Origin: an uncultured Candidatus Saccharibacteria bacterium
GTDB taxonomy: Bacteria > Patescibacteriota > UBA1384 > CAYJQE01
Reading direction: 5' to 3'
DNA: 64,000 nucleotides
NCBI GenBank assembly: GCA_964372245.1
Contig: CAYJQE010000001.1
Span: forward strand, 11,745 to 75,744
The position numbers and the translations under genes were made by a program. Shown here piece after piece: positions 8,031 to 62,611 of the stretch. Within the stretch, counting starts at the first letter, position 1, and each line of letters starts with the position of its first letter. A model generated the notes under the pieces. The model searched no databases. It worked only from the letters and a program-made list of their open reading frames with translations, and was not told the DNA's origin.

Positions 8031-8053
8031 TTTTTTAGTTCAGAACTAAAAAA
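8031..8053. promoter_or_regulatory. Perfect 11-1-11 palindrome TTTTTTAGTTC-A-GAACTAAAAAA upstream of a small membrane-protein gene (candidate operator)
   Basis: Exact inverted repeat seen in sequence, 21-43 bp upstream of the ATG at 8074. A 1-nt centre is too short for an RNA hairpin loop, so a dimeric protein-binding site is more likely. Confidence 0.4.
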
Positions 8054-8073
8054 AGAGAGAGGAGGTGGTAATT

Positions 8074-8400
8074 ATGGACACAACCCAAATCGGGAGATGG
8101 GCTTATGTCGCTGGCTTGATTTTGTCGGTTGTTCTTGGCTGGTACGCTGTTTCCGGCGCGACGACTATTTTAATTATTCTCGGCTTGGTCGTCGGCTTTC
8201 TCAATATTGGCGAGAAAGAGAGCACCTCATTTCTGGTCGCGGTCATCGCCCTAATGTTGGTTGGTTTGGCCGGAACCTCCTCGATCGCGGTTGCCGGAAC
8301 CGGCGATACCTTAGTAAAGATGTTTGACGCCTTTGTCAGCTTTTCAGCCGCGGCCGCGCTGGTAGTTGGAATAAAACAGGTCGTATCGCTCGCCAAGTAG
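8074..8400 (+). CDS. Small hydrophobic membrane protein (three predicted TM segments), function unknown
   Basis: ATG at 8074 is preceded by a strong SD (GGAGG at 8061-8065); an alternative GTG lies at 8065. The product MDTTQIGRWAYVAGLILSVVLGWYAVS... is almost entirely hydrophobic. Confidence 0.5.
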   Translation: MDTTQIGRWAYVAGLILSVVLGWYAVSGATTILIILGLVVGFLNIGEKESTSFLVAVIALMLVGLAGTSSIAVAGTGDTLVKMFDAFVSFSAAAALVVGIKQVVSLAK

Positions 8401-8888
8401 ATCGAGTCAATGACATCTAGGGACTTCCAAGCCGAATGGCTGGCGCCATTCAAATGCTCGACCACGCTCGTTTGAGCGCTTCCGATGGTTACACCTTTTG
8501 CCAGCTTTCCCGCGGGGTCGATCAACCTTTTGATCGAGATTTCATTAATCCCGAACCCTTCCGGGAGGAAGACGGGGGTGGTTTTTAGTTTTTCATTCGG
8601 ACCAACCCTTGGTCCGATAAATTTTGTCCAATCGCCATCATCTTCAAGCTGAAAAACGATCAGACCCCCGTCTTGTCTGAAGCCGATGAACCCAAGGTTC
8701 GGATCGGCTAACCCCTTGGAGAGAGCGATCGCGGACCGGTTGTTTCGAATTCGAGAAAGACTCAACCAGTCAGGGCCACTCTTAAAAACTTTTGGGTAAA
8801 ATCTTTTTCCTGCTGCCGCATGGTTTGCGGCATTTGTCAGCTTGATCAGCTTTTTCTGTTCCTTGTTCATTCCACAACCTCTTTTCAA
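8103..8888 (-). CDS. Hypothetical protein whose 3' third overlaps the opposite-strand membrane-protein gene
   Basis: 261-aa ORF. The N-terminal ~160 aa (MNKEQKKLIKL...FRQDGGLIVFQLEDDGDWTKF...) look protein-like. The C-terminal ~100 aa, antisense to 8103-8400, are Pro/Thr/Ala-rich, as expected from antisense reading of a hydrophobic gene. The true 3' end is uncertain. Confidence 0.4.
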   Translation of the reverse strand: MKRGCGMNKEQKKLIKLTNAANHAAAGKRFYPKVFKSGPDWLSLSRIRNNRSAIALSKGLADPNLGFIGFRQDGGLIVFQLEDDGDWTKFIGPRVGPNEKLKTTPVFLPEGFGINEISIKRLIDPAGKLAKGVTIGSAQTSVVEHLNGASHSAWKSLDVIDSIYLASDTTCFIPTTSAAAAEKLTKASNIFTKVSPVPATAIEEVPAKPTNIRAMTATRNEVLSFSPILRKPTTKPRIIKIVVAPETAYQPRTTDKIKPAT

Positions 8889-9001
8889 AAAATCCGAGCC
8901 CTGACTCCCGAAGGATGTCAGATACTCTTGACAGTTATTTTATCCGAACCAGCGGATCTGTCAACCACTGTTGACAGATCAGATAAATCGCGAGGCCGAG
9001 A

Positions 9002-10396
9002 TTAAACTTGCCAAAAGGCTCGGAGCACCACCTCCGAGAGCGCCGGGTGGATATGAATCGAATTGGTGATCGCCGAAATTTTCCCCTCGGCCGCTTTCAT
9101 TGCGGTTACAATCTCTTGAATCAAGATTGAGGCTGCTGGCCCTAAGATATGGCCGCCAAGGATTGTTCGCGCCTTTCGATCTATGATTACCTTAACAAAA
9201 CCGGTCTCTTCCTCGATAGCTTTGCCCATGCCGGTGTTTTTGTAGCGGCTTAGCCCGACTTGATAGTCGAGACCGAGATCGGTCGCCGCTTCCTCGGTCA
9301 AGCCAACGCCGGCCACTTGGGGCGAAGAAAAAATAGCGTGGGGCATGGCGGCATAGTCAACCGCCAACTTTTTCTCGCTGAAGAGATTGTTTCTGACGTA
9401 GACCGCTTCAAGGTTAGCCGAATGCTTAAAGGCGAACTTGCCGGCTATGTCGCCAAGCGCGAAGAGTCCTGGCTGACTGGTCTCCAAAAATTGGTCGGTT
9501 TTTATATAACCTTTTTCATCCAGTTCAATCTCGGCCTTCTCGGCTTGAATCAGATCGCTGTTCGGTCGGCGGCCGGTGGCGATAAGCAACTCCTCGGCCG
9601 AAATCTCCTTTTCGCCCGATCGAGATAAAAGGGTCGTGACTTTCAGACCGTTCTCGAGCCTGACTCGCTTGACGGTTGAGTTGAAGATGAGGTCAAACTT
9701 TTGACTGAAAAGTTCGGTAAAGGTTTCAGAAATCGCCCGGTCTTCCCTTTTAATCAGCCGATCACCTCGATCAACGATCGTTATCTTCGAGCCGAGCGAG
9801 CCAAAGAAGTGCGCCAGTTCAGCCGAGATATAACCGCCGCCGAGGATGATGATTGACTTAGGCAGCCGCTTGAGCCTTAAAGCCTCGGTGCTAGTCAGGC
9901 AGCCAACGCTCTCGAGACCTTCAATTGGCGGTCTGGTCGGTCTTGTGCCCGCGGCAATAAGGATTTTCTCGGCCCTTAATCGCTCGCCCGACTTGGTTTC
10001 GAGGGTTTTTCGACCGACAAAAAAACCTCGCTCTTTATAGAGTGTTAAATTGGGATTATTTCTGATCGCGACCTCGATTTTTTGGGCCTCGCCATCAACC
10101 TGCCGACTAGCTCGGCCAACAATTTTTTTAAGGTCTATCGAGTCGAGCTTGACATCCAGTCCAAAAAGATGAGCCCTCTTTATCTCCGTTAGGAGATCGG
10201 CTGCGTGAATCAGCATTTTTGAGGGAATACAGCCCCGGTTGAGACAGGTTCCGCCCATCGGCCCCTCTTCGATCAAAGCGCATTTCAACCCCTTCTGTCT
10301 CGCGGCGTAAGCCGCGACGTCGAGGCCAGAACCGGCGCCGATAACTATTAAATCATATTCTTTCATCCTGCCGCTCTTGCCTTTGCTTTTTATCAA
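9002..10396 (-). CDS. Dihydrolipoyl dehydrogenase-family FAD/NAD(P) disulfide oxidoreductase
   Basis: FAD-binding YDLIVIGAGSGL, redox-active disulfide GGTCLNRGCIPSK, second Rossmann fold IIILGGGYISAE and C-terminal HIHPALSE (the HxHPTLSE interface motif). Confidence 0.7.
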   Translation of the reverse strand: MIKSKGKSGRMKEYDLIVIGAGSGLDVAAYAARQKGLKCALIEEGPMGGTCLNRGCIPSKMLIHAADLLTEIKRAHLFGLDVKLDSIDLKKIVGRASRQVDGEAQKIEVAIRNNPNLTLYKERGFFVGRKTLETKSGERLRAEKILIAAGTRPTRPPIEGLESVGCLTSTEALRLKRLPKSIIILGGGYISAELAHFFGSLGSKITIVDRGDRLIKREDRAISETFTELFSQKFDLIFNSTVKRVRLENGLKVTTLLSRSGEKEISAEELLIATGRRPNSDLIQAEKAEIELDEKGYIKTDQFLETSQPGLFALGDIAGKFAFKHSANLEAVYVRNNLFSEKKLAVDYAAMPHAIFSSPQVAGVGLTEEAATDLGLDYQVGLSRYKNTGMGKAIEEETGFVKVIIDRKARTILGGHILGPAASILIQEIVTAMKAAEGKISAITNSIHIHPALSEVVLRAFWQV

Positions 10397-10468
10397 CCCT
10401 CTTAGAATCCCTGGTGGTAGGCTTTAGAGCTTGAACTTTCTCTTTAGTCTTCCTTGTCCCAATCTAGA

Positions 10469-12961
10469 TCAGCTTGGTCTTCCGACCAACCGCTCTTCTT
10501 TTTCGAGGACGATCCGTTTTTCAATTAATGGTTCTCCCTTCCGGACTTTGAAATTCAAGTTCTGGGCGCTAAATCCCGGCTTTGTGGTTGTGATCGAGTA
10601 GCTCCCCTCTTTGCTCAAAAATTGGAATCGGCCGGTCTTGTTGCTTACGGTTGAGCCGACAAGCCTTTCCCGACCGTCATCTTTGGTTAAAAGCCGAACC
10701 AGGGCGAGGGCGACTGGTTGGTCTTGTCTGGTGGCGATCTTGCCGAAAGGTCTTTTTTGAAAGAGAAGAATCAGTTCGATCAGCCAAAACAAGAGATAGA
10801 CGACGCCGAGGAGAATCATCCTTGTTGACCGCTCCGAATAGAACAAATAGGCGGCGCTTAAAGTGCCGGCGATGAGAAGCGGCCAGTGGAGAGCCCGGAG
10901 ATAATCGAACAGTCGCTGCAATCTAAAAGCCCGTCTGACCGAGGCTAGGCTGGCTTTTTGGTTTTGATTGAGGTTAACATCGAGAGCGATTCTTTGGTTT
11001 TCTCTCGCTACCTCGATCGGCTGGCTTTCAAAAATTTTAAAGTGAGAGTGGCGAACGATGATCTTGAAATGGCCGGTTTCGGCCAAAAAACCGAACCGGC
11101 CGGTCTCATCAGTTGTTGACTGTTCGACCACTCGGCCTTTGTCAAGATCGATCAACTGAACTATCGCTCCGAGGACCGGCAGCTCGGTCGCTCGATCTCT
11201 AATAGTTCCAAAAGGCTTCTTCTTTTTTCTTGTGACATAGCCCAAGGGGAGAAGATTCCGGAGCGGGGGCAAGCCAGTCAGGATGTTGGAACTCAAAGCG
11301 CCGGCGACCGTTGGCAACGAGAGGAGGCCGACGGCGGCCAAAAGAGCTGTCAGTTGGAGAGTCGCCTTCCTGACCAAGACTTCAAATGTCCCGCTCTTTT
11401 TTGATGTCTCTTCCTCGATGCCCGAGATTGCTTGACCGACGACCGACAGCTCAAGGAGGAAGTTTTGATCGGACGGTTTTCTCAAAATGAGCCGGCCGTT
11501 GAGAATCGAGCCGTCGTCTCCAAGTTGAGCTGAAAATTCGCCCTCGATTTCCTCTGAATCAAGGCGACCAGAGAACTCACCGATTAAGCCGCCGTCCTGC
11601 CCCAATCTAGCCTCGATCATTCCAGTTAAAACAGCAGTTTTGTCTTCTCCCTCTTTGAGATCGGATTGGTCTTGAGGAGTCGGGATGGCGAAAGGCAAAA
11701 TCTCGCCGGACACCCGCCCGTTCTTGAGAGTCAAGTCCGCGGTCACGCTTCCTTGACTGATCGGCGGACTCGTCTCGGTTAAAGAACTTGGTTCTTGAGA
11801 GTCAGAAGTGGCAACCAAGCCTTTCGAATCTTTGGCCGAAGATCCCGAACTCACTCCCGTTTTTGGTTTGGAATCGGTTTTAGAGGTCGATTTGATCGTT
11901 CCGCCAGTCGAGCCTCCAACCTCGACTGAACCGGCTATTTGACCTTGACCGCTCGATCCGGTTTTGCTTGTCGGACTAGAAGACCCGCTTCCGGTGGTCG
12001 AGCCGGTCGAACCAGTCGAGCCGGACCCGCTAGTCGAACCAGTCGAGCTGGTCCCGCCGGTCGAAGTCGTTTGGCCGCCTGATCCGGTCGTACCGCCGGT
12101 TCCCCCACTCGAGCTGGTGGTAAAGCTGCGTGAAGCGTAACCCTCGCTCCCAAGATCGTGATTGTCCCAGACGGAAACTCTCAACTCGTAACTTGTTCCG
12201 CTCTCAAGTTCGACCAATCTCGATGTGGCCGAGCTGGTGGTTTTTGAGGTGTCAAGAACCGTTGTTTGGCCCTTGAGCACAATTAAGCGGTAGGCCGATT
12301 GAGTGTCTGACGAGTTCGAGTCGGTAAAGACCCAGCTTAACGTATATTTGGTCTGGCCGGACGACGGCTCGGCGTAAGCCAAACTGGTTGCTTGAGGGGC
12401 CGAGTTTTGCTCAACCGTCACATTGACCGAGGTTCGGTATTGGTATGATGAAGGGCAGAGAGCTATGAACTCCATGATGTATTTTCCCGCGATTGGACTG
12501 TCGGTCGCGCTGCCGGATTTGATCGAGCTAACCTGCGAAACATTGTAGCGAACCAAGTCTTGACCTTGAGGGTCGGTGATAAAGAAATCGAGGTAGGCGG
12601 TCGAGGGGTTGTCCTTCAGGTTTGAGTGGGTAAAGGAGAAGTCGAGGGTTTCACCCTCAATAATCGTCAAATTGATGGCGTCGTCGAGTTTTTGATTCGG
12701 CGGCGGGGTATGGGATTTGGTTTGATCCTCGGCGGTGTGGCTTTTGCCGGGTGGGGCGTTGGCGCACATCTCGTAAGTCATGCCTTGAGCCGAGAGTCGA
12801 ATGATACGACGAACATCGATCGAAACCAAACCGAGGAAGATTAAAAAGACAGCCAAAAGGACCCCCCAGTGAATGTGGCGATGATATCGTCCCTCGTGCC
12901 AAAGTCTGTACCAGAGATGACGAGAAACGAGATGACTATGAATTCTTCTCATCATTGACAA
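10469..12961 (-). CDS. Large membrane-anchored surface protein: N-terminal TM, Fn3-like domain, Gly/Ser/Thr-rich linker, CarboxypepD_reg-like domains, C-terminal TM segments
   Basis: 830 aa with an N-terminal TM (GVLLAVFLIFLGLVSI). Fn3-like signature (YTLSW...YELRVSVWDNHD). ~60-aa GST low-complexity tract. Two D..TG.F.F..L..G.Y-type beta-sandwich motifs and C-terminal hydrophobic helices. Confidence 0.6.
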   Translation of the reverse strand: MSMMRRIHSHLVSRHLWYRLWHEGRYHRHIHWGVLLAVFLIFLGLVSIDVRRIIRLSAQGMTYEMCANAPPGKSHTAEDQTKSHTPPPNQKLDDAINLTIIEGETLDFSFTHSNLKDNPSTAYLDFFITDPQGQDLVRYNVSQVSSIKSGSATDSPIAGKYIMEFIALCPSSYQYRTSVNVTVEQNSAPQATSLAYAEPSSGQTKYTLSWVFTDSNSSDTQSAYRLIVLKGQTTVLDTSKTTSSATSRLVELESGTSYELRVSVWDNHDLGSEGYASRSFTTSSSGGTGGTTGSGGQTTSTGGTSSTGSTSGSGSTGSTGSTTGSGSSSPTSKTGSSGQGQIAGSVEVGGSTGGTIKSTSKTDSKPKTGVSSGSSAKDSKGLVATSDSQEPSSLTETSPPISQGSVTADLTLKNGRVSGEILPFAIPTPQDQSDLKEGEDKTAVLTGMIEARLGQDGGLIGEFSGRLDSEEIEGEFSAQLGDDGSILNGRLILRKPSDQNFLLELSVVGQAISGIEEETSKKSGTFEVLVRKATLQLTALLAAVGLLSLPTVAGALSSNILTGLPPLRNLLPLGYVTRKKKKPFGTIRDRATELPVLGAIVQLIDLDKGRVVEQSTTDETGRFGFLAETGHFKIIVRHSHFKIFESQPIEVARENQRIALDVNLNQNQKASLASVRRAFRLQRLFDYLRALHWPLLIAGTLSAAYLFYSERSTRMILLGVVYLLFWLIELILLFQKRPFGKIATRQDQPVALALVRLLTKDDGRERLVGSTVSNKTGRFQFLSKEGSYSITTTKPGFSAQNLNFKVRKGEPLIEKRIVLEKEERLVGRPS

Positions 12962-13117
12962 TTATATCTTACCATCCGGCCCAACTTTGATCACGACTGT
13001 TTTTTGAGCGGGGGCCAAACCTTACCAATCGCCCGAGTCTAAGACCATTGCCCGATCAATTTCAGTCTGTTCATCAATCGAGTAGGCTATACTCGATGTT
13101 ATTGTTAAATTGAGGCG

Positions 13118-13822
13118 GTGACAATCATGGATCGAGAGAGATTGCTTTTTGTTGATATTGAGACCTTACCGGCGGCAAAATCGCTTATGCCAAAGCTTAA
13201 AAGCTACTTTGTTGGCCGACGGAAAAGAGAGGGCAAGAGTTTCACTCAAAAAGATATCGATGGTTATCACAAAAGCAGTTCGCTTTTGGCCGAATGGGGT
13301 CGGGTATTGTGTGTCGGTTGGGCGCGTGGCGACCAGCCGGCCGAGATTATAGCTCAAACGAGTGAGGCAATTGAAAGCGATTGGCAGTCGGCCGAACGAA
13401 AGACCCTGAGTGATTTTTGGCGGCTTTTTCGTCCCGAGACGATTTTTGTCGGCCACAACATTTTTAATTTCGATCTGCCTTTTTTGATTAAACGTTCGAT
13501 TATCCATCGAATCAGACCGCCGGCTATCTCTTTTCATCGCTATCGCTCTGACCCGATCTTTGACACTATGCTTGAATGGAATCGCTGGGCCTTTCGAAGT
13601 AGTGTCAGTCTCGATCTGTTGGCTCAAATTTTTGATCTCGAATCGTCGAAAAAGGAGATTGATGGCAGCCGGGTCTATCAAGCCTTTAAGGCCGGAAAGC
13701 TTGATCTTATTCTTGACTACTGTCGAAGAGATGTCGAGCTGACGAGGGCGATTTACGATCGGCTCAATTTTTCCGATCAGTTAAGCCAAAACTCTTTCGG
13801 TGATTCAAAAAAGTGGCTATAA
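13118..13822 (+). CDS. DEDD-family 3'-5' exonuclease (RNase H-like fold, PolB-exonuclease-like)
   Basis: Exo I LLFVDIETLP, Exo II FVGHNIFNFDLPFL, Exo III YCRRDVELT. 13118 is a GTG; the first ATG is at 13127. Confidence 0.6.
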   Translation: MTIMDRERLLFVDIETLPAAKSLMPKLKSYFVGRRKREGKSFTQKDIDGYHKSSSLLAEWGRVLCVGWARGDQPAEIIAQTSEAIESDWQSAERKTLSDFWRLFRPETIFVGHNIFNFDLPFLIKRSIIHRIRPPAISFHRYRSDPIFDTMLEWNRWAFRSSVSLDLLAQIFDLESSKKEIDGSRVYQAFKAGKLDLILDYCRRDVELTRAIYDRLNFSDQLSQNSFGDSKKWL

Positions 13823-14169
13823 TCGTGATTATGAATCACTTTCCAGACGAATTCATCGCTCAAAGAAAAGCCGCTCTCTTAGAGAAGCAGAAAAATTTGC
13901 TTTCCGAAATAAATCGTCTCGAGGATGAGGAGTCGAGAGATTCTGGTTCTGACTATTCCGAGGACGACCTTTCTCAAAGAGCTCAAGATCGCTATGACGA
14001 AGGCGCGATCGAGGACCGGTTGAGAAAAGACCTCGAGAAGGTTGATGCCGCTCTCTTGCGGATCGAATCCTCAACCTATGGCGTCTGTGGCAATTGCCAA
14101 AAATTGATTGACCGAGCGAGACTGGAAGCTTTGCCAGAAGCCGGGATCTGTCTTGAGTGCAGTCGTTAA
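13813..14169 (+). CDS. DksA/TraR-family C4-type zinc-finger protein
   Basis: C-terminal CGNCQKLIDRARLEALPEAGICLEC (Cx2C-x17-Cx2C) with an acidic coiled-coil N-terminal half. Confidence 0.6.
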   Translation: MAIIVIMNHFPDEFIAQRKAALLEKQKNLLSEINRLEDEESRDSGSDYSEDDLSQRAQDRYDEGAIEDRLRKDLEKVDAALLRIESSTYGVCGNCQKLIDRARLEALPEAGICLECSR

Positions 14170-14181
14170 ATAGTTATTGAT

Positions 14182-15183
14182 ATGGTCCGAGCGACTTCAG
14201 TCGAGAGGCTGCTGAAGCAAAGACTCGGTCAGTCTTTGACAGAGAACGTTTCGCTTCGAGATCACTCGTCGCTTAAGGTTGGCGGGGTGGCCGATTACTT
14301 TTTCGTCGCTCAAACAACCGCCGATCTGACTCGGGCCATCTCGGCCGCTTTGGAGGCCGAGATTGGCTATTTTATCCTCGGCGGCGGCTCGAATGTGGTT
14401 TTTTCCGACACCGGTCTGCCCGGTCTGGTGATTAAGAATCGAGCTCGGTCGGTTGTTGTGGACGAAAGCAAGGCTCAAGTGATTGCCGATTCGGGCGCGA
14501 CTTGGGCTCAAGTCCTGCCTCAAGCCGCCTCTTTCGGACTAGGCGGCATGGAGGCCTTTATGGGCCTGCCGGGGACGATCGGCGGGGCGATTTATGGCAA
14601 TGCCGAGTGTTTCGGCCTCGAGACGGCCAGCCAGTTAATTGATCTGACCTTAATAAGGCCGCTGACCGCTCAAAGCTTAGTCCAGAAAAAAAACTTTTTC
14701 CGGCTTGTTCATCTCAAGTCGGGGGCTCTTCAGTTTCGCTATCGAAGCTCGAGTCTAAAAGAAGACCGGGCCGAGATGAAGCCGGTTATTCTAACGGCCA
14801 GGTTCCAGCTTTCTCACGCGAGGCCGGATGTGATTCTGAAGCGGATGAAAGATTATTTATCTCGTCGTCAAGCTCTTTCCCAGGCCAAGGGCCTGCCCTC
14901 GTCGGGCAGCTTTTTCAAGAATCCCGGCGGTCGAAGATTCGGGCCTTCGGGGCTCGAGCTTGAACCGGAAAAAACGGCTGGCTTTTTGATTGACCAAAGC
15001 GGCCTTAAGGGCGCCCGATTGGGTCAGGCCGAAGTCAGTCGCGATCATGCCAACTTTATCGTCAACCGTGGCCAGGCCAGCGCCGAGGAGATTAGACTTT
15101 TGGCCGACAAGGTCAAGTCGGAAGTTTTGGCTAAATTCGGTCTTAAGCTTGAGGAAGAAGTAGAATATATTGGCCGGTGGTAA
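14182..15183 (+). CDS. murB: UDP-N-acetylenolpyruvoylglucosamine reductase
   Basis: FAD-binding PCMH domain (LKVGGVADYFF, ILGGGSNVVFSD) and MurB C-terminal domain (PSSGSFFKNP). Confidence 0.8.
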   Translation: MVRATSVERLLKQRLGQSLTENVSLRDHSSLKVGGVADYFFVAQTTADLTRAISAALEAEIGYFILGGGSNVVFSDTGLPGLVIKNRARSVVVDESKAQVIADSGATWAQVLPQAASFGLGGMEAFMGLPGTIGGAIYGNAECFGLETASQLIDLTLIRPLTAQSLVQKKNFFRLVHLKSGALQFRYRSSSLKEDRAEMKPVILTARFQLSHARPDVILKRMKDYLSRRQALSQAKGLPSSGSFFKNPGGRRFGPSGLELEPEKTAGFLIDQSGLKGARLGQAEVSRDHANFIVNRGQASAEEIRLLADKVKSEVLAKFGLKLEEEVEYIGRW

Positions 15184-22673: not shown

Positions 22674-23867
22674 ATGGTGGTTAGTTCGAATCAATCGTTT
22701 TTATCGCGACGGACTGAAAAGATCATCGGTCGCGACTGGCTCGAATCGGCGATTAGACAAAAAAAGAGATTGCGAATTTATTTCGGTATTGACCCGACGG
22801 CGCCGAATATCCATCTCGGTTCGGCGGTCTCTCTCCTAAAGTTGCGCGAGTTTCAAGAAGCCGGCCATCGGGTGATTCTCCTGATTGGCGATTTTACGGC
22901 TTTGGTTGGCGATCCTTCCGGTCACGCCAGAGAAAGGACCAGACTTTCGGAGCGGGAGGTCGAGGAAAACTTGGCCTTTTATCTCGAGCAGGCCTCAAAG
23001 ATTCTTGATCCAGAAAAACTTGAAGTCAGAAAGAACTCCGAATGGTTGTCTAAGCTCACCCTCAAGGATTTTATCGGCTTTGGCTATCATTTCAACGCCC
23101 ATCAGATCGCTGAAAGGAGTCTCTTTCAGGAGCGGAAAAAATCTGGTCAAAGACTGTCAGTCGCCGAGTTTCTCTATCCTCTCCTTCAGGCAATTGACGC
23201 TTTGCGACTGAAAGCCGATCTTCAGATCGGCGGGAGCGATCAAGAATTCAACATGATCGCTGGCCGCGATCTTATCAGACGACTCGAAAATCGAGAGATG
23301 GCGATTATGATCACGCCCTTGATTCTTGGGACCGACGGTCGGAAGATGAGCAAAACCTTGGGCAATAGTATTAATCTGGTTGACGAGGCCGATGAGATGT
23401 TTGGTCGAATTATGAGTTTGCCCGATGACCTAATCTATCCCTACTTCGATTTGACGACCGACATTTCAGAAGAGGAACTTTTGGCGATTCAATCTGACCT
23501 TAAAGAACCAAAAAACCGGATGCTCGTGAAATTGAAATTGGCCAATCAGATTGTCAAACAGTTTCATGGCCGAGAACCGGCCTTTAGGGCTGAGGAGGAC
23601 TTTAAGCGGCGTTTTTCAAAAAGGGAGATGCCGCTTCAGCTAAAAAGCCTTCAAGTAAAGAAGAGGAAAGGCCGATCGCTGGTTGAGCTTTTGGTCGAGA
23701 GTGGTCTAGCCAAGTCGAAAGCTCAAGCCAAAAGATTGATAGCCGAAGGGGGAGTTAAGATTGACGGCAATCAAGTTGATGCCGATCAGACTATTGATTC
23801 CGATAAGCTCTCGAAATTTGTTCTTCAAGTCGGTCGAAGACGAATTCGAGAGATTGTATTTCAATAA
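22674..23867 (+). CDS. tyrS: Tyrosine--tRNA ligase
   Basis: HIGH-type motif (PTAPNIHLGS), KMSKS (KMSKTLG) and a C-terminal S4 domain. Confidence 0.85.
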   Translation: MVVSSNQSFLSRRTEKIIGRDWLESAIRQKKRLRIYFGIDPTAPNIHLGSAVSLLKLREFQEAGHRVILLIGDFTALVGDPSGHARERTRLSEREVEENLAFYLEQASKILDPEKLEVRKNSEWLSKLTLKDFIGFGYHFNAHQIAERSLFQERKKSGQRLSVAEFLYPLLQAIDALRLKADLQIGGSDQEFNMIAGRDLIRRLENREMAIMITPLILGTDGRKMSKTLGNSINLVDEADEMFGRIMSLPDDLIYPYFDLTTDISEEELLAIQSDLKEPKNRMLVKLKLANQIVKQFHGREPAFRAEEDFKRRFSKREMPLQLKSLQVKKRKGRSLVELLVESGLAKSKAQAKRLIAEGGVKIDGNQVDADQTIDSDKLSKFVLQVGRRRIREIVFQ

Positions 23868-24017: not shown

Positions 24018-24786
24018 TAGTATATACTATCGATCGGGCAGACTTAAGCATCAATTGACGATCCACCGAGCATACCTCAACCGGTTGAATAGTAGTATAT
24101 ACTAGTGAAAGACGGTGTTGCCTTCAGCTAAGATCTCGATTGGTTTAAGGCGGAACAAATAGCTAAAAAATGTAGTATATACTACTTTTTGCTCATAACT
24201 CGCGTTCATTCGCGACCGACTGATTAACGTCAAAAAATGAGACCGCAAGCGCGGGCAGTAGTATATACTATCGAGCGACCGCTCTGATTTCTGATCGCGA
24301 TCTCGTCTGGAACCAGACCGAGTGGTAAAATAGTATATACTATTATTTAAAGCCTCAGTTTTTTAAGGGCCGCAAACCGTTGTTCAATTGGTGGCGAGCG
24401 ACCCGTCGGAGGGCCTAACATACTCTGAACTTAACAGTCTCAATCTCGAATCATGAGTCTCTGGAAGTCAACACCCAATTTGGTTGAAATAGTATATACT
24501 ATTTTCTTTGAGTTTTATGCTGGCCGAATTGCCAAGCGGAGACACACGTTCGGCCAGTCAGGGCGGGGCGAAAACTACTTTGAGCTTTCTAGAAGGCTAT
24601 CTGGCGCAGGTGGGCTTCAATTGGCGCGACAGCCATGTAGTATATACTAGTGTTTTTTAGTCTCTCTCCGAGCGGTCGCGGCTCTGGATTTTGCCATTCG
24701 CCAGCTTGATATTTTTTGGTGATTGCCGGTCAGCAAAACGCTCGGTACCTTCAGGACCGTCTTCTTCTTCAATGTAGTATATACTA
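24018..24786. repeat. Array of eight exact copies of the 12-bp perfect palindrome TAGTATATACTA with non-repetitive spacers
   Basis: - Copies at 24018-24029, 24093-24104, 24173-24184, 24259-24270, 24331-24342, 24490-24501, 24638-24649 and 24775-24786.
- Extended form (A/T)GTAGTATATACTA(C/T/G)(T/C); copies 3 and 8 are the full 14-bp palindrome GTAGTATATACTAC.
- Spacings are 75, 80, 86, 72, 159, 148 and 137 bp.
- The region 23868-24646 has no ORF longer than 65 aa and is flanked by convergent tyrS and trmD. Copy 7 spans the trmD stop codon and copy 8 lies inside the trmD 3' end. Confidence 0.85.
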
Positions 24787-25354
24787 CCGGACGGGTATAT
24801 TGAGGGTACTCGAGGAGTCTTTTTTTTGTTTCCTCGTCTTTAATGGTGAACGACTCAATCGTTGACGATTCGGCTTTGCCGAGGCCACCGGGGGCCAAGC
24901 GAGTCAGGGCGTCAATCAAAGTCATGGCCGGCAATTCACCGCCCGTCAAAACATAATCGCCGACCGAGATCGCTTCATCAACTATTTTGTGAACCCGATG
25001 GTCAACGCCCTCGTAGTGGCCAGCGACCAGAACGAGATGTTCGTATTTTGACAATCGCTCGACTTTTTTCTGGTTCAAGAGTTTGCCCTTCGGGTCAAGC
25101 AAAATCAGGCGGCAATTTCTTTTTATTTTTAAGTTTGAAATGGCGCGGTCTATAACATCGACCCGAAGGATCATTCCCCGACCGCCGCCGCAGGGTCGGT
25201 CGTCAACGGTTTTATGCTTATCAAGGGCGAACTCTCTAATGTCTACCGCCTCGACGGAGATCGCTTTCCTCTTGACCGCCTTACCGATAACGCTTATTGA
25301 GGACCAATAACCGATGAGCTCGGGAAAAAGAGTCAGAACGGAAAACTTCTTCAC
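24647..25354 (-). CDS. trmD: tRNA (guanine37-N1)-methyltransferase
   Basis: SPOUT/TrmD motifs (VLTLFPE, DDRPCGGGRGMIL, YTRP...LLTGNH). Confidence 0.85.
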   Translation of the reverse strand: MKKFSVLTLFPELIGYWSSISVIGKAVKRKAISVEAVDIREFALDKHKTVDDRPCGGGRGMILRVDVIDRAISNLKIKRNCRLILLDPKGKLLNQKKVERLSKYEHLVLVAGHYEGVDHRVHKIVDEAISVGDYVLTGGELPAMTLIDALTRLAPGGLGKAESSTIESFTIKDEETKKRLLEYPQYTRPVVYTTLKKKTVLKVPSVLLTGNHQKISSWRMAKSRAATARRETKKH

Positions 25355-25412
25355 CCGCCAGCACTACTAAGGACCCGGCCTCCGGGCCTGATTTTTGGTC
25401 AGAAAAAACGCT

Positions 25413-25784
25413 TCAAGCCAGAAGGTCGGTCGGAACGTCGTCTTCAAGTTTTTCTTCTTTGGCCTCTTCCGCCGCCGGCTGGTCTGCCGATTGATCTTTC
25501 TGGTCGTCGGCTTTTCTCGATCCGCCTGTGCCTCCCTCGGGCTCGACTATTTTCAGGTTAACCCGGGCGTTTCGCTTAGCGCCGAAAACGCTAAGAAGCT
25601 TCCTGATTGCTTTAGCCGTGTTGCCTTCCCTGCCGATGACCGTTCCCATATCTTCCGGATCAACGTGGAGTTCGATGAGCACACCGAGCTGGTCAATCGT
25701 CCGGTCGGTCTTGACACTCTCCGGCTTGCCAACCAACCCCCTGACGATTGATTCGACAAACTCCTGATCGGTGATTTCTGCCAT
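25413..25784 (-). CDS. KH-domain RNA-binding protein (YlqC-like) with an acidic C-terminal tail
   Basis: KH GXXG loop (VIGREGNTAKAIRKL). Lies between rpsP and trmD, as in rpsP-ylqC-(rimM)-trmD operons. Confidence 0.7.
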   Translation of the reverse strand: MAEITDQEFVESIVRGLVGKPESVKTDRTIDQLGVLIELHVDPEDMGTVIGREGNTAKAIRKLLSVFGAKRNARVNLKIVEPEGGTGGSRKADDQKDQSADQPAAEEAKEEKLEDDVPTDLLA

Positions 25785-26197
25785 TGTTCTCCTTTCTTAG
25801 TGTTACTTTCCGCTTGTTTTTGAGTTTGAACTTCTGGTTCTCGCGAGCGGTCTTCGGTCGGAGCTTGGACTTGAACTGACTTATCGGCCGTTCCGTTTTG
25901 GTCTGACTTTGCCTCGGCTGAACTTTTTTTTCGGATCAAGACCTTTCGCTTGGGCGACTGAATGACCTCGTGCTTAACCAGTAGATTGTGGACCGTGTCG
26001 CTTGGCCTGGCTCCCTTTTTCAACCAGCCAAGAATCTTCTCTTGGTCTATTTTGAAAACCTTGGGCCGGGCGGCCGGCTGATAGTAGCCAACCTGGTCAA
26101 CAAAACGGCCCTTGACCGGGGCGGTTGACTCGGCGACAACCAAGCGAAAGTGAGGCTTCGACTTTCGACCCGTCCGCTTCAGTCTTATTTTCAGCAT
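25553..26197 (-). CDS. rpsP: 30S ribosomal protein S16 with a long low-complexity C-terminal extension; the 3' 230 bp overlap the KH gene in another frame
   Basis: ATG at 26197 with a GGGAG SD 8 nt upstream. The S16 core is MLKIRLKRTGRKSKPHFRLVVAESTAPVKGRFVDQVGYYQP... There is no stop until 25553, so the Lys/Gln-rich tail runs into the KH gene. This is either a real overlap or a frame error. Confidence 0.7.
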   Translation of the reverse strand: MLKIRLKRTGRKSKPHFRLVVAESTAPVKGRFVDQVGYYQPAARPKVFKIDQEKILGWLKKGARPSDTVHNLLVKHEVIQSPKRKVLIRKKSSAEAKSDQNGTADKSVQVQAPTEDRSREPEVQTQKQAESNTKKGEQWQKSPIRSLSNQSSGGWLASRRVSRPTGRLTSSVCSSNSTLIRKIWERSSAGKATRLKQSGSFLAFSALSETPGLT

Positions 26198-26247
26198 CGT
26201 TTTCTCCCGTCTTAAGTTTCTCAAGTTTAGCAAGGGAAGGCGAATTG

Positions 26248-27141
26248 TCAAGAGCCGCCAAAGAGAGTTTTCAAAATCTGATCGGTCATGAGTCTTTGAT
26301 AGCCGTTTCGAAACTCTGCCCCGCCGATCTCTTTTTTGCCTTCCGGCTTGACTCTCAAGTTAACCAGCCGGCCGGATTGGCTGTCGTAGTCGGATGAGGC
26401 GATTAAAACTCTCCGGCCGTCTTTTAGAAAAAAATAAGTTCCGGGCCAGGGATTTAAGGCCTTGATCATTCGCCAGATCTTTGCTCTCGAATCGGTGGCA
26501 AAATCAATCAGCCCGTCCTCTTTTTTCAACAACTTGGTCGCCGGCTTTTCCGTTTTCGGTTGTTCTTTAGCCTTCAGTTTGCCGGTTAAATAGAGGGGAA
26601 GGTATTTTTTTATCATTTCGGCTGACAGGTCGGCCAGCTTGGCCGAGAGCTTCAAAAAAGTGTCGTCTTTTTCAACCGCGATTTTCTCTATCGCTAGAAT
26701 TGGACCGGTGTCCATACCCTCGTCGATCAACATCAAAGAAACGCCGGTCAACCGATCGCCCTTTAACAAACAGGCTTGAATCGGCGAGGGACCACGATAT
26801 TTTGGCAGAATCGAGGGATGGACGTTGATCGTTTTGAAGGTCGGTATCTCGATCAGGTCTTTCGGGAGAATTTTGCCGTATGCCGCAACCAAAATCAGGT
26901 CAGGCTTCTCTCTTCGGATAACCGCTATCGCTTCTGGGTCCTTTTTGAAACTTGTCGGTTGGAAAAGTTTTATTCCTTCGCGCTTGGCTCTCGCCTTGAC
27001 CGGTGTGTCAATTCTCTTTAGGCCTCGACCCCGCGGCTTGTCTGGCTCAGTCACGATCAGACTCGGTCGCAGGTCAAGCTTTAAAAGCGCCTCGAGCGCC
27101 GGCAGGGCAAAGCTTGGTGTCCCAAAAAAGATGATCTTCAC
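26248..27141 (-). CDS. fmt: Methionyl-tRNA formyltransferase
   Basis: N-terminal formyltransferase domain (MKIIFFGTPSFALPAL, NVHPSILPKYRG) and a C-terminal Fmt domain. Confidence 0.85.
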   Translation of the reverse strand: MKIIFFGTPSFALPALEALLKLDLRPSLIVTEPDKPRGRGLKRIDTPVKARAKREGIKLFQPTSFKKDPEAIAVIRREKPDLILVAAYGKILPKDLIEIPTFKTINVHPSILPKYRGPSPIQACLLKGDRLTGVSLMLIDEGMDTGPILAIEKIAVEKDDTFLKLSAKLADLSAEMIKKYLPLYLTGKLKAKEQPKTEKPATKLLKKEDGLIDFATDSRAKIWRMIKALNPWPGTYFFLKDGRRVLIASSDYDSQSGRLVNLRVKPEGKKEIGGAEFRNGYQRLMTDQILKTLFGGS

Positions 27142-34323: not shown

Positions 34324-34692
34324 ATGACAATGTCGCCGATGACTCGCCATTTTGATCAACGGTTTTTGGGCTTGATGGAGAAAGCCTTGCTTGATGAACG
34401 AAACAGGCTCCAGAGCGAGGTAGGTCAAAAGGCGAAGTTCCAAAGACTCGGCGACTCGGAAGATGATAATGTTCTTCAAGTTGAGCAGATTGTCGAAAAC
34501 GTCGGTCTAACCAACCGGCTTAAAGATCTTCTTTTGCGAGTTGAACGGTCGCTCAAGCGGATTAGGTCCGGCGCCTATGGGATCTGCGTTGTTTGCCATG
34601 GGCCGATCGAGCGAAGTCGGCTTCAGATCTTGCCGACGGCCGAAAACTGCGCTTCTTGCAAACCGAAACAGGGAGAACGGGGGAGGAGATAG
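34324..34692 (+). CDS. DksA/TraR-family C4 zinc-finger protein (second paralog in the window)
   Basis: CVVCHGPIERSRLQILPTAENCASC (Cx2C-x17-Cx2C). AGGAG SD upstream. Confidence 0.6.
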   Translation: MTMSPMTRHFDQRFLGLMEKALLDERNRLQSEVGQKAKFQRLGDSEDDNVLQVEQIVENVGLTNRLKDLLLRVERSLKRIRSGAYGICVVCHGPIERSRLQILPTAENCASCKPKQGERGRR

Positions 34693-42474: not shown

Positions 42475-42820
42475 GAGGCTTGACAGGTCAAGGCTGTTGC
42501 CGACCGGCGATCGGTCGGAGGAAAGTCCAGGCACCGAAACGCGGGCAACTCATCGCAAGGCGAGCCGAGGCGACTCGAGGGCAAGTGCAACAGAAAGTAT
42601 ACCGCCAATCCCGAAGTTTCGTTGGGAGGTAAGGGTGAAATCGTGGGGTAAGAGCCCACGCGTTCTCGTGGCGACACGAGTCGGTGTAAACCCTTGTCGG
42701 TGCAAGTCGGGTGGGCGAGATCATCATCAAGCGTGGCGTTTCGCGATGACCACTCGTCCCGACGCAGAGAGAGATAACAGCCCAAAACAGAACCTGGCTT
42801 ATTGGCCTGTTAAGCCCTGG
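42475..42820 (+). ncRNA. rnpB: RNase P RNA (bacterial, type A-like)
   Basis: Conserved P4/CR-I GGAGGAAAGTCCAGGC, CR-II/III AGGGTGAAATCGTGGGGTAAGAGCCCAC and the 3' P4 strand ACAGAACCTGGCTTAT. P1 helix pairs 42477-42490 with 42803-42816. Only short overlapping ORFs occur in all frames here. Confidence 0.8.
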
Positions 42821-43092
42821 ATTGGTTTGGCGTCTTAATATCAAAAGAGCGGAAAAAGCCGGAACCGATAGGTCGGTCTTGTTTTTGGGTGTTGAGTCAA
42901 TCTAGCGGCCAAGTAATCAAAAATGGTTGCTTTTTGCTTAAAAGGGCGGACAACTTCTGGCCAGACGGGCTTTAAACCCTTAACGGCCATGAACCCTTTC
43001 GAGCTTGACTTCAGACATCGGTTTTAGGTCTGCGGTTAGAGGGAGTTTACCGACTGGCGTTTAAGCCCCTTTTTTATTTAAGATTGAGATGA

Positions 43093-45316: not shown

Positions 45317-47239
45317 TTGATGGCGGAAAAGGATCCCGATCGTTTGTTTGAGGGTCTCAACGATCGTCAAAAAGAGGCGGTTAAGACGACCGAAGGACCG
45401 ACCCTGATTTTAGCCGGCGCCGGCTCGGGCAAAACGAGGACTCTGACAACAAGAATTGCCTATCTGATCAGTCGCAAAAAGGTCTCTCCAACCAACATTT
45501 TAGCCGTCACTTTTACCAACAAAGCGGCGGGCGAGATGGCCGATCGGGTTCGGACTCTTCTCGGCGTCGAGGGCAATCGAGGGACGCTCCCCTGGCTTGG
45601 AACCTTTCACAGTATCTGCGTCAAAATCCTTCGGAGCGAGCTTGACTCGAGCCGACTTCCCCACTCTCGTTATTTTACAATTTACGACGCGAGCGATCAG
45701 CTAACGCTTATCAGACGGATTATGCGGGAAGAACAAATTGACCAGAAGCAGTACAACCCGAGAATGATCCGAGCTCAAATCTCTAGCGCCAAAAATGATC
45801 TTCTGGATCCAAAGAATTACCTTGAATCGGCCGAGAGCCGGCTCCAGGCAACCATCGGGCTGGTATATACTCGTTATCAAAAAGGCCTGGAAAGGTCCAA
45901 CGCCTTTGATTTTGACGACCTGATCAATCAGACGATCAGGCTTTTTGAGGACGACCACTCGGTTCTCGAAAAGTACCAAAAAATTTTTCTATATATACTG
46001 GTTGATGAGTACCAAGACACAAATCGAGGTCAGTATATACTAATCAAAAAATTAGCCCAGAAGAGGAAAAACATCTTTGTGGTTGGCGACGACTGGCAAG
46101 CCATCTATGCCTTTAGAGGGGCTGATTACAAAAATATTTTGAGCTTCGAATCGGACTATCCCGAGGCGAAGGTCGTCAAGCTCGAAGAAAATTATCGCTC
46201 GACGAAACAGATCCTTGACGCCGCGGCGGGCGTGATCGGACAGAATCGAGAGCGGTCGGAAAAAAAGCTTTTTACCAAGAACCGGCTTGGTCGGAAAATC
46301 AGAGCGGTTGAGTGCCAGTCGGAGCTCGAAGAGGGCGAGTTTATCGTCAATCAGGCGCGGTTTATAGAGGCCGAAGGCCGGGACAACCTGAACGATTTGG
46401 TCGTCCTCTATCGGATCAACGCTCAATCAAGGCAGATCGAAGAGGCTCTCCTAAAGGCTGGCGTCCCCTACCGGATTATCGGTTCGGTCCGATTCTACGA
46501 TCGAAAAGAGGTCAAGGACATTCTCGGCTATTTGACGGCGATCATCAATCCGGCCGATCTGGTTGGCTTTGAACGGATAGTCAATGTCCCGCCTAGAAAA
46601 ATCGGCCAAAAAACTCTGCTGGCTTATCGCCGTTCCCTGATCCTTGGCGATCCGCCGCCGCCAAAAGTCGAGGTCTTTCTCGCTCTGCTCGCCAAGCTTC
46701 GAAGATCGGCCGCCGATCTAAAACCGGAAAAGGCGATCGAGTTCATCTTGAAGTCTGTCGGTTATCAAGACTGGCTCAACGACGGGACGCTTGAAGCCGA
46801 GAGCCGACTCGAGAATCTCAAGGAGCTTCAAAATGTCGCCAGTCAACACGAGACGATCGAGGACTTTTTGGAACGAGTCGCTCTGATTCAGGAGACCGAT
46901 CTCTCAAGAGAGAGCGCTCAAGGTCGGGAGCGGACCGAGGCGGTCAGCCTGATGACGATCCACGCCGCCAAAGGACTTGAGTTCAAAAGAGTGGTCATTG
47001 TCGGTTTCGAAGAGAATATTTTTCCTCACAGTCGGGCCCGGCTTAACCCCGAAGATTTAGAAGAGGAGAGGCGACTTTGTTATGTCGCGATGACTCGGGC
47101 CAAAGAGGAGCTCTCGTTGGTTTACAGCCTCTCGCGGCGTCAATTTGGTCAATTCTTTGCCAATCCTCCATCTCGCTTCTTTGATGAAATACCAAGCCAC
47201 CTTCTCGACAATCAACAGTGGCTTGGCGGCTTGACCTAA
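45317..47239 (+). CDS. uvrD: ATP-dependent DNA helicase of the UvrD/PcrA/Rep family
   Basis: SF1 motifs: I AGAGSGKTRTL, Ia, II VDEYQDTN, III GDDWQAIYAFRGA, IV, V, VI VAMTRAKEEL. 640 aa, so lacks the long PcrA C-terminal tail. Confidence 0.85.
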   Translation: MMAEKDPDRLFEGLNDRQKEAVKTTEGPTLILAGAGSGKTRTLTTRIAYLISRKKVSPTNILAVTFTNKAAGEMADRVRTLLGVEGNRGTLPWLGTFHSICVKILRSELDSSRLPHSRYFTIYDASDQLTLIRRIMREEQIDQKQYNPRMIRAQISSAKNDLLDPKNYLESAESRLQATIGLVYTRYQKGLERSNAFDFDDLINQTIRLFEDDHSVLEKYQKIFLYILVDEYQDTNRGQYILIKKLAQKRKNIFVVGDDWQAIYAFRGADYKNILSFESDYPEAKVVKLEENYRSTKQILDAAAGVIGQNRERSEKKLFTKNRLGRKIRAVECQSELEEGEFIVNQARFIEAEGRDNLNDLVVLYRINAQSRQIEEALLKAGVPYRIIGSVRFYDRKEVKDILGYLTAIINPADLVGFERIVNVPPRKIGQKTLLAYRRSLILGDPPPPKVEVFLALLAKLRRSAADLKPEKAIEFILKSVGYQDWLNDGTLEAESRLENLKELQNVASQHETIEDFLERVALIQETDLSRESAQGRERTEAVSLMTIHAAKGLEFKRVVIVGFEENIFPHSRARLNPEDLEEERRLCYVAMTRAKEELSLVYSLSRRQFGQFFANPPSRFFDEIPSHLLDNQQWLGGLT

Positions 47240-51896: not shown

Positions 51897-52994
51897 TTGA
51901 TGAAACCGAAGCGGGTTGCCTTGGTTCATGAATATTATCTCGCGGCAAAACAGGGCGGCGCCGAGCGAGTCCTTCGAGACTTTGTCGAGCTTTTCCCCGA
52001 AGCCGAGCTCTTTTTTCTGCTGGCTGACGAAGATCAACTGAAAAAAGATTTTCCAAACTCTCGCTATCGGCTCTCTTTCTTGCAGGCCAAGCCCTTTGTT
52101 CAGTCTCGGCTTGATTGGTATCGGGCTCTGATGCCAATGGCGATTGAAGATTTCGATTTCCGAGGCTTTGAACTTGTGATTTCGAACTCTCATTCCTACG
52201 CCAAAGGCATTATCACCAAACCGGAAACGACTCATATCTGCTACTGTTTGACGCCGACTCGCTTTCTCTGGCTCAATCAACAGGATCACCTTAATCGAGC
52301 CGGTTTTTCTTGGCTCGAACGGCGACTGGCCAGGCCGGTTCTTGATTTCCAACGCCGTTGGGATAAGGCTGCCTCGATGCGGGTTGATCACTATGTTGGC
52401 ATCTCGAAGGCGGTCCAGAAGAGGATCAAGGACCTCTATGATCGTTCTTCTCGTCTCATTTACCCGGCGATAGATATCAAAGAATTTCAGGCCGGAGATA
52501 AGGATGGCGACTTCTTTCTCTTGGTTGCCCGGCTCGAGCCGCACAAGATGGTTGATCTCGCTATCTTGGCCTTTAACCGACTTGGCCGACCGCTCAAAAT
52601 AGTCGGCGTCGGCAAAGATGAGGCCAAACTGAAAAGGATGGCGAAAGCCAATATAGAGTTTCTCGGTCGGGTTTCTGAACCGGAACTCAAAGAGCTTTAT
52701 CAGCGATGTCGAGCCTTTATCTTCCCGCAGGAAGAAGACTTTGGCTTGACTGCCCTCGAGGCTCAAGCCTCTGGCAGGCCAGTCATAGCCTTCGGGGCTG
52801 GCGGGGCGCTTGAGACAATAATTGACCAGAAAACTGGTATATACTTCTCACGGCAAACTTTTGAGTCGCTTATCGCGGTGGTTAAACGGTTCGAGAGGAA
52901 AAGCTGGGATAAGAAGACGATTAGAGTTCAGGCCGAGCAATTCGGAAAAAAGTCTTTCAAAAAGGCCTGGTTGAGCTACATCGCAAGCCTTTGA
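51897..52994 (+). CDS. Glycosyltransferase family 4
   Basis: GT4 C-terminal domain (FFLLVARLEPHKMVDLAILAF, EDFGLTALEAQASGRPVIA). Confidence 0.75.
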   Translation: MMKPKRVALVHEYYLAAKQGGAERVLRDFVELFPEAELFFLLADEDQLKKDFPNSRYRLSFLQAKPFVQSRLDWYRALMPMAIEDFDFRGFELVISNSHSYAKGIITKPETTHICYCLTPTRFLWLNQQDHLNRAGFSWLERRLARPVLDFQRRWDKAASMRVDHYVGISKAVQKRIKDLYDRSSRLIYPAIDIKEFQAGDKDGDFFLLVARLEPHKMVDLAILAFNRLGRPLKIVGVGKDEAKLKRMAKANIEFLGRVSEPELKELYQRCRAFIFPQEEDFGLTALEAQASGRPVIAFGAGGALETIIDQKTGIYFSRQTFESLIAVVKRFERKSWDKKTIRVQAEQFGKKSFKKAWLSYIASL

Positions 52995-62080: not shown

Positions 62081-62611
62081 GTGTCAAAGATTATCGTCAT
62101 TCAAGCCAGCCTCAACCGAGGCTCGAGGACCGCGATTGTCGCCAAGGAGGCAGAAGCTCTTCTTCTAGAAAAAGCCGTTCAGACCGAAACGATTGATCTG
62201 CGGGAGTTAAAACTTGAGTTTGCCGACGGCCGAAGGATTGAGGACTATGGTCGAGACCTGAAAACTGTCTACCGAAAGCTTGCCGTCGCCAAGGGCTTTG
62301 TGTTGGCCTTTCCGGTTTATAGTTTTTCTCATTCCGGCGTTGTCAAGAACTTCATTGACATTGTTTGCGGGGCGATGCAAGGCAAATTTATCGGCCTGAT
62401 TGAAAACTCCGGCGGTCGTCTTTCCTATCTGGCGGCCGCCGAAATGATGAAGCTTTTGGCCTTTGATTTCGACATCACGACCGTTCAGCCAGTAGTATAT
62501 ACTAGTTCTATGAGCTTTGATAATGGCAAACTGGTCGACCAGAAGGCGTTCGAAAAACTCGACAAAATGACCGACCGGTTGCTAGAATTTGTCGAGAAGC
62601 TCTCTAATTAA
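62081..62611 (+). CDS. NAD(P)H-dependent FMN reductase / flavodoxin-like-fold oxidoreductase
   Basis: GTG start. FMN_red-like MSKIIVIQASLNRGSRT...FVLAFPVYSFSHSGVVKNFIDIV. Contains an exact copy of the TAGTATATACTA palindrome at 62493-62504. Confidence 0.7.
   Translation: MSKIIVIQASLNRGSRTAIVAKEAEALLLEKAVQTETIDLRELKLEFADGRRIEDYGRDLKTVYRKLAVAKGFVLAFPVYSFSHSGVVKNFIDIVCGAMQGKFIGLIENSGGRLSYLAAAEMMKLLAFDFDITTVQPVVYTSSMSFDNGKLVDQKAFEKLDKMTDRLLEFVEKLSN

Follow-up and report, generated by a model that had tools for sequence, protein, structure and literature searches.

How does the same 12-bp palindrome come to stand, in frame and spelling nearly the same peptide, in two different genes? The question is raised by a stretch of 64,000 nucleotides from contig CAYJQE010000001.1 of an uncultured Candidatus Saccharibacteria bacterium (the window, by which we mean this whole stretch). 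In the window, the 12-mer TAGTATATACTA, written with its flanks as (R)TAGTATATACTA(Y), is the most over-represented word. We observed nine perfect copies, whereas approximately none are expected from shuffled sequences; when up to two mismatches are allowed, 12 sites are found against 0.09 expected from shuffling. Eight of the perfect copies lie within 24018–24786, between the genes tyrS and trmD and partly inside trmD, and one lies at 62493–62504 in an FMN-reductase gene. An earlier reading of this DNA, made from its letters only (the sequence-only reading), had offered two explanations: a short palindromic element that can insert in frame into coding DNA, or a DNA site that is under strong selection whatever the sequence codes for. 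These are two look-alikes, a repeat inserted in a gene and a DNA site written by codon choice. They can be distinguished here, and our results argue for the second.

To begin with the solitary copy, the gene concerned (62081–62611, plus strand) encodes an NAD(P)H-dependent FMN reductase or flavodoxin-like protein (Pfam FMN_red and Flavodoxin_2), and the palindrome occupies its codons P137 to S142. As had been noticed before, it is read in frame as CCA GTA GTA TAT ACT AGT (P-V-V-Y-T-S). The flanks had also been described as those of array copies 2 and 7. For copy 2 this is correct, with a 16-mer (AGTAGTATATACTAGT) at 62491–62506 that is the same at 24091–24106; for copy 7 only 15 nt are common, the first base being T and not A. 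We aligned the protein to the best 79 of 590 relatives from a full HMMER search and found no length variation or indel at the palindrome site across these 79 homologues. In the columns under Q-P-V-V-Y-T-S, the homologues carry P/Q, P (38 sequences), V/F/I/T, V (57), Y/H/F (58) and T/A/S (56), and the pattern of the wider family is [QP]-P-x-V-[YHF]-[TAS]. The best homologue with DNA at hand (P0123 on contig L001, 47% identity) aligns without gaps, with TTLQPVVYTSKH facing TTVQPVVYTSSM of the window protein. It contains QPVVYTS at the equal place and length, and its DNA reads CAG CCG GTG GTT TAT ACC TCC (CAGCCGGTGGTTTATACCTCC), in which the palindrome is absent. A homologue with the same residue count and the same peptide but no palindrome is what the sequence-only reading had itself named as a refutation, and an insertion into the reductase gene is thereby refuted. 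QPVVYTS is an ancestral motif of the family.

The second perfect copy within a gene is array copy 8 (24775–24786) in trmD (24647–25354, minus strand), where it covers codons V190 to T194 and the perfect palindrome is the 14-mer GTAGTATATACTAC. Its coding strand reads CCG GTA GTA TAT ACT ACA (P-V-V-Y-T-T), as given in the sequence-only reading, which had also pointed out correctly that this TrmD is longer than usual. We found 16 residues from YTRP to VLLTGNH in the window protein and 10 in 103 of 120 aligned TrmDs (the window protein and 119 homologues). YTRP varies little or not at all among the 119 homologues. Of the three residues that follow it, the first is Val in seven of them, the second Val in 31 or Ile in 14, and the third aromatic, with Tyr or Phe in 116 (YTRP-x-x-[Y/F]). 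The V-V-Y of the window protein aligns with this pattern and therefore sits at canonical TrmD positions. Removing VVYTTL (18 nt), which had been proposed to restore the canonical length, would take out the aromatic residue kept in 116 of the 119 homologues. The loop from this Tyr to the following VP comprises four residues in 103 of the 120 TrmDs, 5 to 14 in 16 others (e.g. EVYTAVSTKVQKKLKVP) and 10 in the window protein; that is, 16 of the 119 homologues have insertions of 1 to 10 residues in the loop. The six extra residues belong to this indel-prone loop after Tyr and are plausibly TTLKKK or LKKKTV. Nine of the 14 palindrome bases code for residues that match the conserved x-x-[YF] in the alignment, and no more than the final five (ACTAC) could fall in inserted DNA. 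The palindrome was thus not inserted into trmD as a unit.

The peptides are thus matched by the protein families, and what sets the two sites apart is their spelling. GTA makes up 3.4% of the 1176 Val codons in the genes of the window, and both perfect in-gene copies spell GTA GTA. With the codon usage of the window, the probability of obtaining the 12-mer is 4e-5 given VVYTS and 1.5e-4 given VVYTT. Furthermore, all three genuine V-Y-T tripeptides in window proteins are spelled GTA TAT ACT (P of approximately 0.0045 each). We then compared the coding DNA with 1000 synonymous-codon shuffles that preserve every protein sequence and the codon pool. Two perfect 12-mers are observed and none in any shuffle, one copy with a single mismatch is observed against a shuffle mean of 0.018, and the core GTATATAC occurs five times against a mean of 0.23 and a maximum of two. 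The one-mismatch copy (CAGTATATACTA, 11/12, 46031–46042) lies in a uvrD/pcrA-like helicase gene and is read in the frame in which a perfect motif would start with a TAG stop. It reads Q-Y-I-L, makes use of the rare codons ATA (10.6%) and CTA (4.5%), and deviates solely at the base that would otherwise create the in-frame TAG, with C in place of T. Two weaker copies (10/12 each) are found in the same helicase gene (TGGTATATACTC, 45861–45872, in the V-Y-T frame as CTG GTA TAT ACT CGT) and in a glycosyltransferase gene (TGGTATATACTT, 52835–52846, in the third frame as T-G-I-Y-F). The codon choice at the palindromes is not explicable by codon usage, and the codon statistics support the second suggestion, that the DNA site is itself strongly selected regardless of what it encodes.

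The shared peptide itself, on which the sequence-only reading had laid stress, is less informative. Of the three frames of TAGTATATACTA, one holds TAG, another reads S-I-Y-[Y], and the last gives [L/I/V]-V-Y-T and then a codon starting with A; since the motif is palindromic, the same three frames apply on both strands. Both perfect copies do encode V-V-Y-T; however, this carries little weight, as the frame is dictated by the motif and the genetic code, and for two perfect copies with two open frames a shared frame is a 1-in-2 event. The Pro before the palindrome is conserved independently in the FMN-reductase and TrmD families. Nor are in-gene copies always in the same phase: the weaker copies at 46031 and 52835 are in the other two frames.

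Most copies lie outside these reading frames. The array occupies the 780-bp gap that separates the 3' ends of the convergent genes tyrS (22674–23867, plus strand) and trmD and then extends into the end of trmD, whose 3' 140 nt hold copies 7 and 8. Copies 1 (24018–24029), 2 (24093–24104, the one that shares the 16-mer with the FMN-reductase copy), 4 (24259–24270) and 5 (24331–24342) are accompanied by copy 3 (24173–24184), which has a 5' A-tract and a 3' T-tract, and by copy 6 (24490–24501), which extends to an 18-bp palindrome (AAATAGTATATACTATTT). The terminal CTA of copy 7 (24638–24649) is the trmD stop codon (24647–24649, TAG on the minus strand). Only a unit of 12 to 14 bp is conserved, and from copy to copy the sequences around it are unrelated. 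From start to start, the copies are 75, 80, 86, 72, 159, 148 and 137 bp apart. The last three spacings, between copies 5 to 8, form an arithmetic series with a step of 11 and correspond to nearly whole numbers of helical turns (15, 14 and 13). In the array we found no credible small open reading frames (ORFs) and no similarity to phage or plasmid collections. Three contigs of the same organism from separate sequencing runs (L002, L003 and L133) are 99.96 to 100% identical to the window and have the same copies; these independent assemblies exclude an assembly artefact. The motif does not occur in a further 4.9 kb of left-flanking contig, which was reached via an FtsW look-up.

The motif is a short, perfect palindrome centred on AT whose flanks are not conserved; it forms a cluster in non-coding DNA and is also imposed on coding sequence, all of which is typical of the sites of dimeric DNA-binding proteins. 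We thus think that the palindrome is probably a functional site at the level of DNA, most likely bound by a putative homodimeric sequence-specific DNA-binding protein, which would be the agent of selection. The eight-site cluster (24018–24786) would be the main locus of binding. The in-gene copies were not inserted; they would have arisen by point substitutions, mostly synonymous, and would have been recruited at places where P-x-V-[YF]-[T/S/K] was already present in the protein. As DNA for V-V-Y-T-T matches its own complement at 10 of 14 positions from the outset, such stretches are pre-sites that become perfect with few wobble changes. If the density of the cluster matters, as we infer, this would account for the recruitment of adjacent trmD codons. 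The cluster may serve as a centromere-like or nucleoid-organising centre or as an operator bank, or the sites may be concerned with local control of sodA. Eight perfect sites packed into 770 bp where two genes converge seem unlike ordinary promoter control, and a nucleoprotein centre, by analogy with clusters of the parS, sopC or KorB type, would explain the recruitment of trmD codons best. It is conceivable, if rather unlikely, that this Patescibacteria lineage, which is almost unsampled, has in the cluster a chromosomal cis-element of a non-canonical kind, and that selection for the site overrides codon bias and reshapes tolerant residues of housekeeping proteins. In TrmD, such tolerant residues would be E/K/G, reshaped to V/T/T. 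In that case the element could be centromere-like or nucleoid-organising and could bind a dimeric protein, possibly of the TrpR family.

Several observations weigh against a selected protein-binding site. There are only two perfect in-gene copies in 64 kb. In one of the independent contigs (L003, 4.5 kb, run ERR4904390), the sole difference from the window is a G-to-A change at 24640, by which copy 7 becomes TAATATATACTA; this population variant breaks one palindrome, and therefore not all copies are under strict constraint. Searching all ORFs of 100 aa or more against Pfam, with a permissive search for the ten that were unannotated, we found no TrpR, GntR, ParB or other helix-turn-helix gene in the window, and tblastn likewise found no TrpR-like gene there. 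Lastly, the nearest proteins among 5.8 billion are 54% (TrmD) and 48% (FMN reductase) identical, and the closest database relatives are thus too distant for cross-species conservation of the sites to be assessed.

Among the alternatives, the one that survives best is a sub-case of the binding-site explanation, namely that the FMN-reductase copy is a local operator or promoter part for the downstream sodA. This gene starts 9 bp past the reductase stop codon, and therefore elements that control it must sit inside the reductase gene. The centre of the palindrome is approximately 120 bp upstream of the sodA ATG, a promoter-like match (TCGACA-N18-TAGTAT) overlaps it, and another (TCGACA-N18-TAGAAT, 62559–62588, 10/12) has a TG extension; in total, four promoter-like sites are found in the region against 0.9 expected. 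However, the evidence for promoters consists of consensus matches, the homologous reductase locus (L001) has no downstream sod gene, and the array copies have no promoter association, as the array shows no excess of promoters or terminators (one promoter-like site against 1.6 expected). We therefore regard a role in sodA control as possible but not likely.

It may also be asked if mutation could have produced the in-gene copies without selection, either by template-switch 'correction' of quasi-palindromes or by short-patch conversion from array copies. DNA coding for V-V-Y-T-T (GTnGTnTAyACnAC) is intrinsically quasi-palindromic, with 10 of 14 positions self-complementary before any wobble choice. 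The flanks shared by the FMN-reductase copy and array copy 2 would fit conversion. Template switching would, however, yield any of eight perfect palindromes and not the one of the array in particular, and it explains neither the near-copies in the other two frames nor the stop-avoiding C at 46031. In addition, conversion in tracts of 12 to 16 nt has no known mechanism for loci that are 38 kb apart, and we consider a purely mutational origin quite improbable. Less probable still, at a level that we would call slight, is an element acting in RNA, with the palindrome folding into a hairpin within an mRNA or a non-coding transcript of the array. The array region has more favourable folding than shuffled controls (z = -3.4 and -5.2); however, these scores are driven by palindromes pairing with each other and are uninformative, and a lone motif makes a stem of merely 4 to 5 bp that is rich in A/U. 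No Rfam family matches the array at E up to 1, no tRNA genes are found there, and the copies lie on the sense strands of genes in both orientations as well as in non-transcribed-looking DNA between convergent genes.

The remaining two alternatives are extremely unlikely. A mobile mini-palindrome of 15 to 18 nt, inserting in frame as the longer RPE and Correia elements do, would fit the six residues above canonical length in TrmD and the 16-mer common to the FMN-reductase copy and array copy 2, but the reductase has no extra residues, the VVYTTL deletion loses a conserved aromatic residue, neither target-site duplication nor terminal repeats accompany the copies, the window has no transposase, and 12 to 16 nt is far smaller than any known mobile element. 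Coincidence, in which ordinary codons for a common peptide match the array motif by chance, would agree with the ancestral status of P-V-V-Y-T in the FMN-reductase family and of x-V-Y in TrmD, but it would need two consecutive GTA codons and the same rare spelling at every V-Y-T site, and it meets with the absence of perfect copies from all codon shuffles. No new kind of mobile element is revealed. Instead, the 12-mer gains credibility as a functional DNA site of a bacterium from the candidate phyla radiation whose closest database homologues are only 48 to 54% identical (two proteins searched), and the tyrS–trmD cluster offers a concrete target for finding the binding protein.

Similar arrays in other sequences were mostly uninformative. 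A scan of GTDB representatives gave nine matches, all unrelated, and a scan of metagenomes gave more than 120 matches, mostly eukaryote-like satellites or tandem repeats. In the viral scan, seven IMG/VR genomes (L144, L146 and L148–L152; 176 to 183 kb, 22 to 29% GC) had tandem units of 73 to 85 bp that contain the 12-mer; in these low-GC phage arrays the whole unit is conserved and not the palindrome alone. Contigs of Bacteroides hominis, Prevotellamassilia and Acetatifactor (L006, L007, L008 and L010) share an identical AT-rich segment with two 12-mers, which immediately precedes a gene for a ParA-like ATPase and probably belongs to a mobile element. The informative matches, both of which speak for the binding-site explanation, are a phage-like contig and a group of YerC loci. 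The phage-like contig (L022, 16.4 kb, the same as L135, IMGVR_UViG_3300031933_000066) encodes tail and virion proteins according to PHROGs and contains ten dispersed R-TAGTATATACTA-Y copies (5554–14515) with unconserved flanks. These copies are mostly intergenic, upstream of plus-strand early-type genes, and the structural module holds none. Two copies in ORFs use exactly the two open frames (A-V-V-Y-T-T-E and P-S-S-I-Y-Y-S). The idea of this contig as a virus of the window host, and with it that of a phage decoy, is unsupported, as there is no tblastx similarity and the tetranucleotide correlation is 0.29, compared to 0.8 within the window.

The second group of matches leads to the TrpR family. 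Four Patescibacteria metagenome loci (L014, L103, L120 and L131) encode a TrpR-family YerC/YecD protein in the dcw cluster (Pfam PF01371, E = 4.5e-14), and perfect 28-bp palindromes (TAGTAyCATAGTATATACTATGrTACTA) stand on either side of the gene, with the 12-mer of the window at their centre. These palindromes are paired 69 to 75 bp apart, compared to 72 to 86 bp between array copies 1 to 5, and the upstream one overlaps a promoter (TTGACA-N17-TACTAT). The gene order in the Patescibacteria dcw cluster is murC, yerC, ABC transporter, murB. The palindrome loci are L014 (3404–4304), L131, L103 (5511–6320), L120 (111–777), L153 (9922 and 10532), L155 (1392) and L156 (5540 and 6212). Among YerC orthologues that are 70 to 77% identical, the palindromes occupy equivalent positions but differ in their centres (GTATATAC, GACTAGTC and CCCTAGGG). 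The recognition-helix residues also vary (GKNTVANVARW, GKATVVNVARW and GKSTVAGVARW), and from these sequences it looks as if operator and regulator are co-evolving. TrpR-family sites are palindromes of roughly 20 bp with a lineage-specific consensus (PMC9413887), and the E. coli TrpR site is GTACTAGTTAACTAGT (PMC2811016). The latter has the same TAGT/ACTA half-sites as the window motif, although the half-site spacer of the E. coli trp operator is 2 bp shorter. The central 12-mer of the L014-type YerC operators is identical to the window motif; against this lead, the window copies are without the outer arms (CA...TG plus TAGTAT/ATACTA), the centres vary among YerC orthologues, and TrpR-family operators sit next to a TrpR-family gene or within its regulon, whereas no such gene is found in the window by tblastn.

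A resemblance is also seen to the operators of GntR regulators. The operator pattern of the HutC subfamily reportedly is GT-N-TA-N-AC (Rigali et al. 2002), and the window core GT-A-TA-T-AC fits this pattern, as in NagR dre sites. One predicted NagR site of S. pneumoniae is AAACAAGTATATACTGTTTT (PMC5110562). However, the likeness is confined to the core, and Pfam detects no GntR gene in the window. Furthermore, GntR/HutC operators are single or paired at promoters and do not form eight-site arrays, whereas the array is without promoter association. The TrpR and GntR resemblances are leads, not tests.

As to its context, the window is a Patescibacteria-like (candidate-phyla-radiation) stretch of chromosome that includes the dcw cell-wall cluster, radA, recJ, uvrA, the uvrD/pcrA-like helicase gene, gyrB and gyrA, as well as RNase P RNA and tRNA-Gln. 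The trmD gene belongs to a minus-strand operon of rpsP, a KH (KhpA-like) gene and trmD (24647–26251), in which the palindrome array, and not the usual rplS, comes after trmD. The S16 ORF (25553–26251) has a long C-terminal extension and overlaps the KH ORF (25413–25784) in another frame. A 118-aa ORF (42491–42844, minus strand) overlaps the RNase P RNA gene (42480–42817, plus strand, 186 bits) and is almost certainly spurious; an ORF at 20–592 (minus strand) likewise overlaps a plus-strand MraZ gene called in contig L157. Two small DksA/TraR-type zinc-finger proteins are encoded at 13813–14166 and 34324–34689. The second most over-represented word family of the window is TCGGCC/GGCCGA beside A- or T-runs (e.g. 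TCGGCCAAAAAA, AATCGGCCGA and TTGGCCAA); these words are probably intrinsic terminator hairpins. An origin of replication (oriC) was rejected, as the window has no dnaA gene, two DnaA-box-like sites against six expected and no switch in GC skew.

Lastly, we compared the palindromes to known repeat systems. RPE, Correia, REP and BIME elements are palindromic and repeated as well, and REP and BIME elements resemble the array further in forming clusters between convergent 3' ends and in their GTAG head, which is found in five of the nine perfect copies. However, those elements are 20 to 150 nt long, imperfect and polymorphic in presence and absence, whereas the window copies are perfect and span 12 to 14 nt. 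In-frame RPE and Correia elements add residues to the protein, whereas the window copies add none, and the features of RPE, Correia or MITE-like elements (100 to 150 bp, terminal inverted repeats and a target-site duplication) are absent. REP and BIME elements are imperfect extragenic palindromes of 20 to 40 nt that go with a RAYT (Y1 transposase) gene in the genome; here the length, the perfection and the in-gene copies do not fit, and Pfam detects no transposase in the window. In CRISPR arrays, the direct repeats measure 23 to 47 bp and the regular spacers 26 to 72 bp. A CRISPR array was rejected here, with a repeat of 12 to 14 bp, start-to-start distances of 72 to 159 bp and no cas genes in the window.

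Closer likenesses are found among systems in which a DNA site is kept for its own sake. DNA uptake sequences (DUS/USS) are fixed words that stand in the permissive frames of genes and shape the choice of codons and peptides, as the palindrome does. They differ in being non-palindromic and in occurring about once per kb genome-wide; outside the cluster, the window has one solitary perfect copy in approximately 63 kb, which is far from such a density. The sites of ParB (parS), SopB (sopC) and KorB are short perfect palindromes bound by dimers, clustered at irregular spacing and in some cases placed in coding sequence. The window array would resemble these centromere sites in its clustered perfect palindromes, its irregular spacing and the copies embedded in genes. 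The canonical parS (16-bp palindrome TGTTNCACGTGNAACA) has no match in the window even at three mismatches, Pfam detects no parA or parB gene there, and eight sites in 770 bp between convergent genes are denser than in typical chromosomal parS clusters. DNA sites that are held within genes by selection on the DNA itself are thus already known from parS and the uptake sequences, whereas the sequence of this palindrome and its dense cluster are specific to the lineage.

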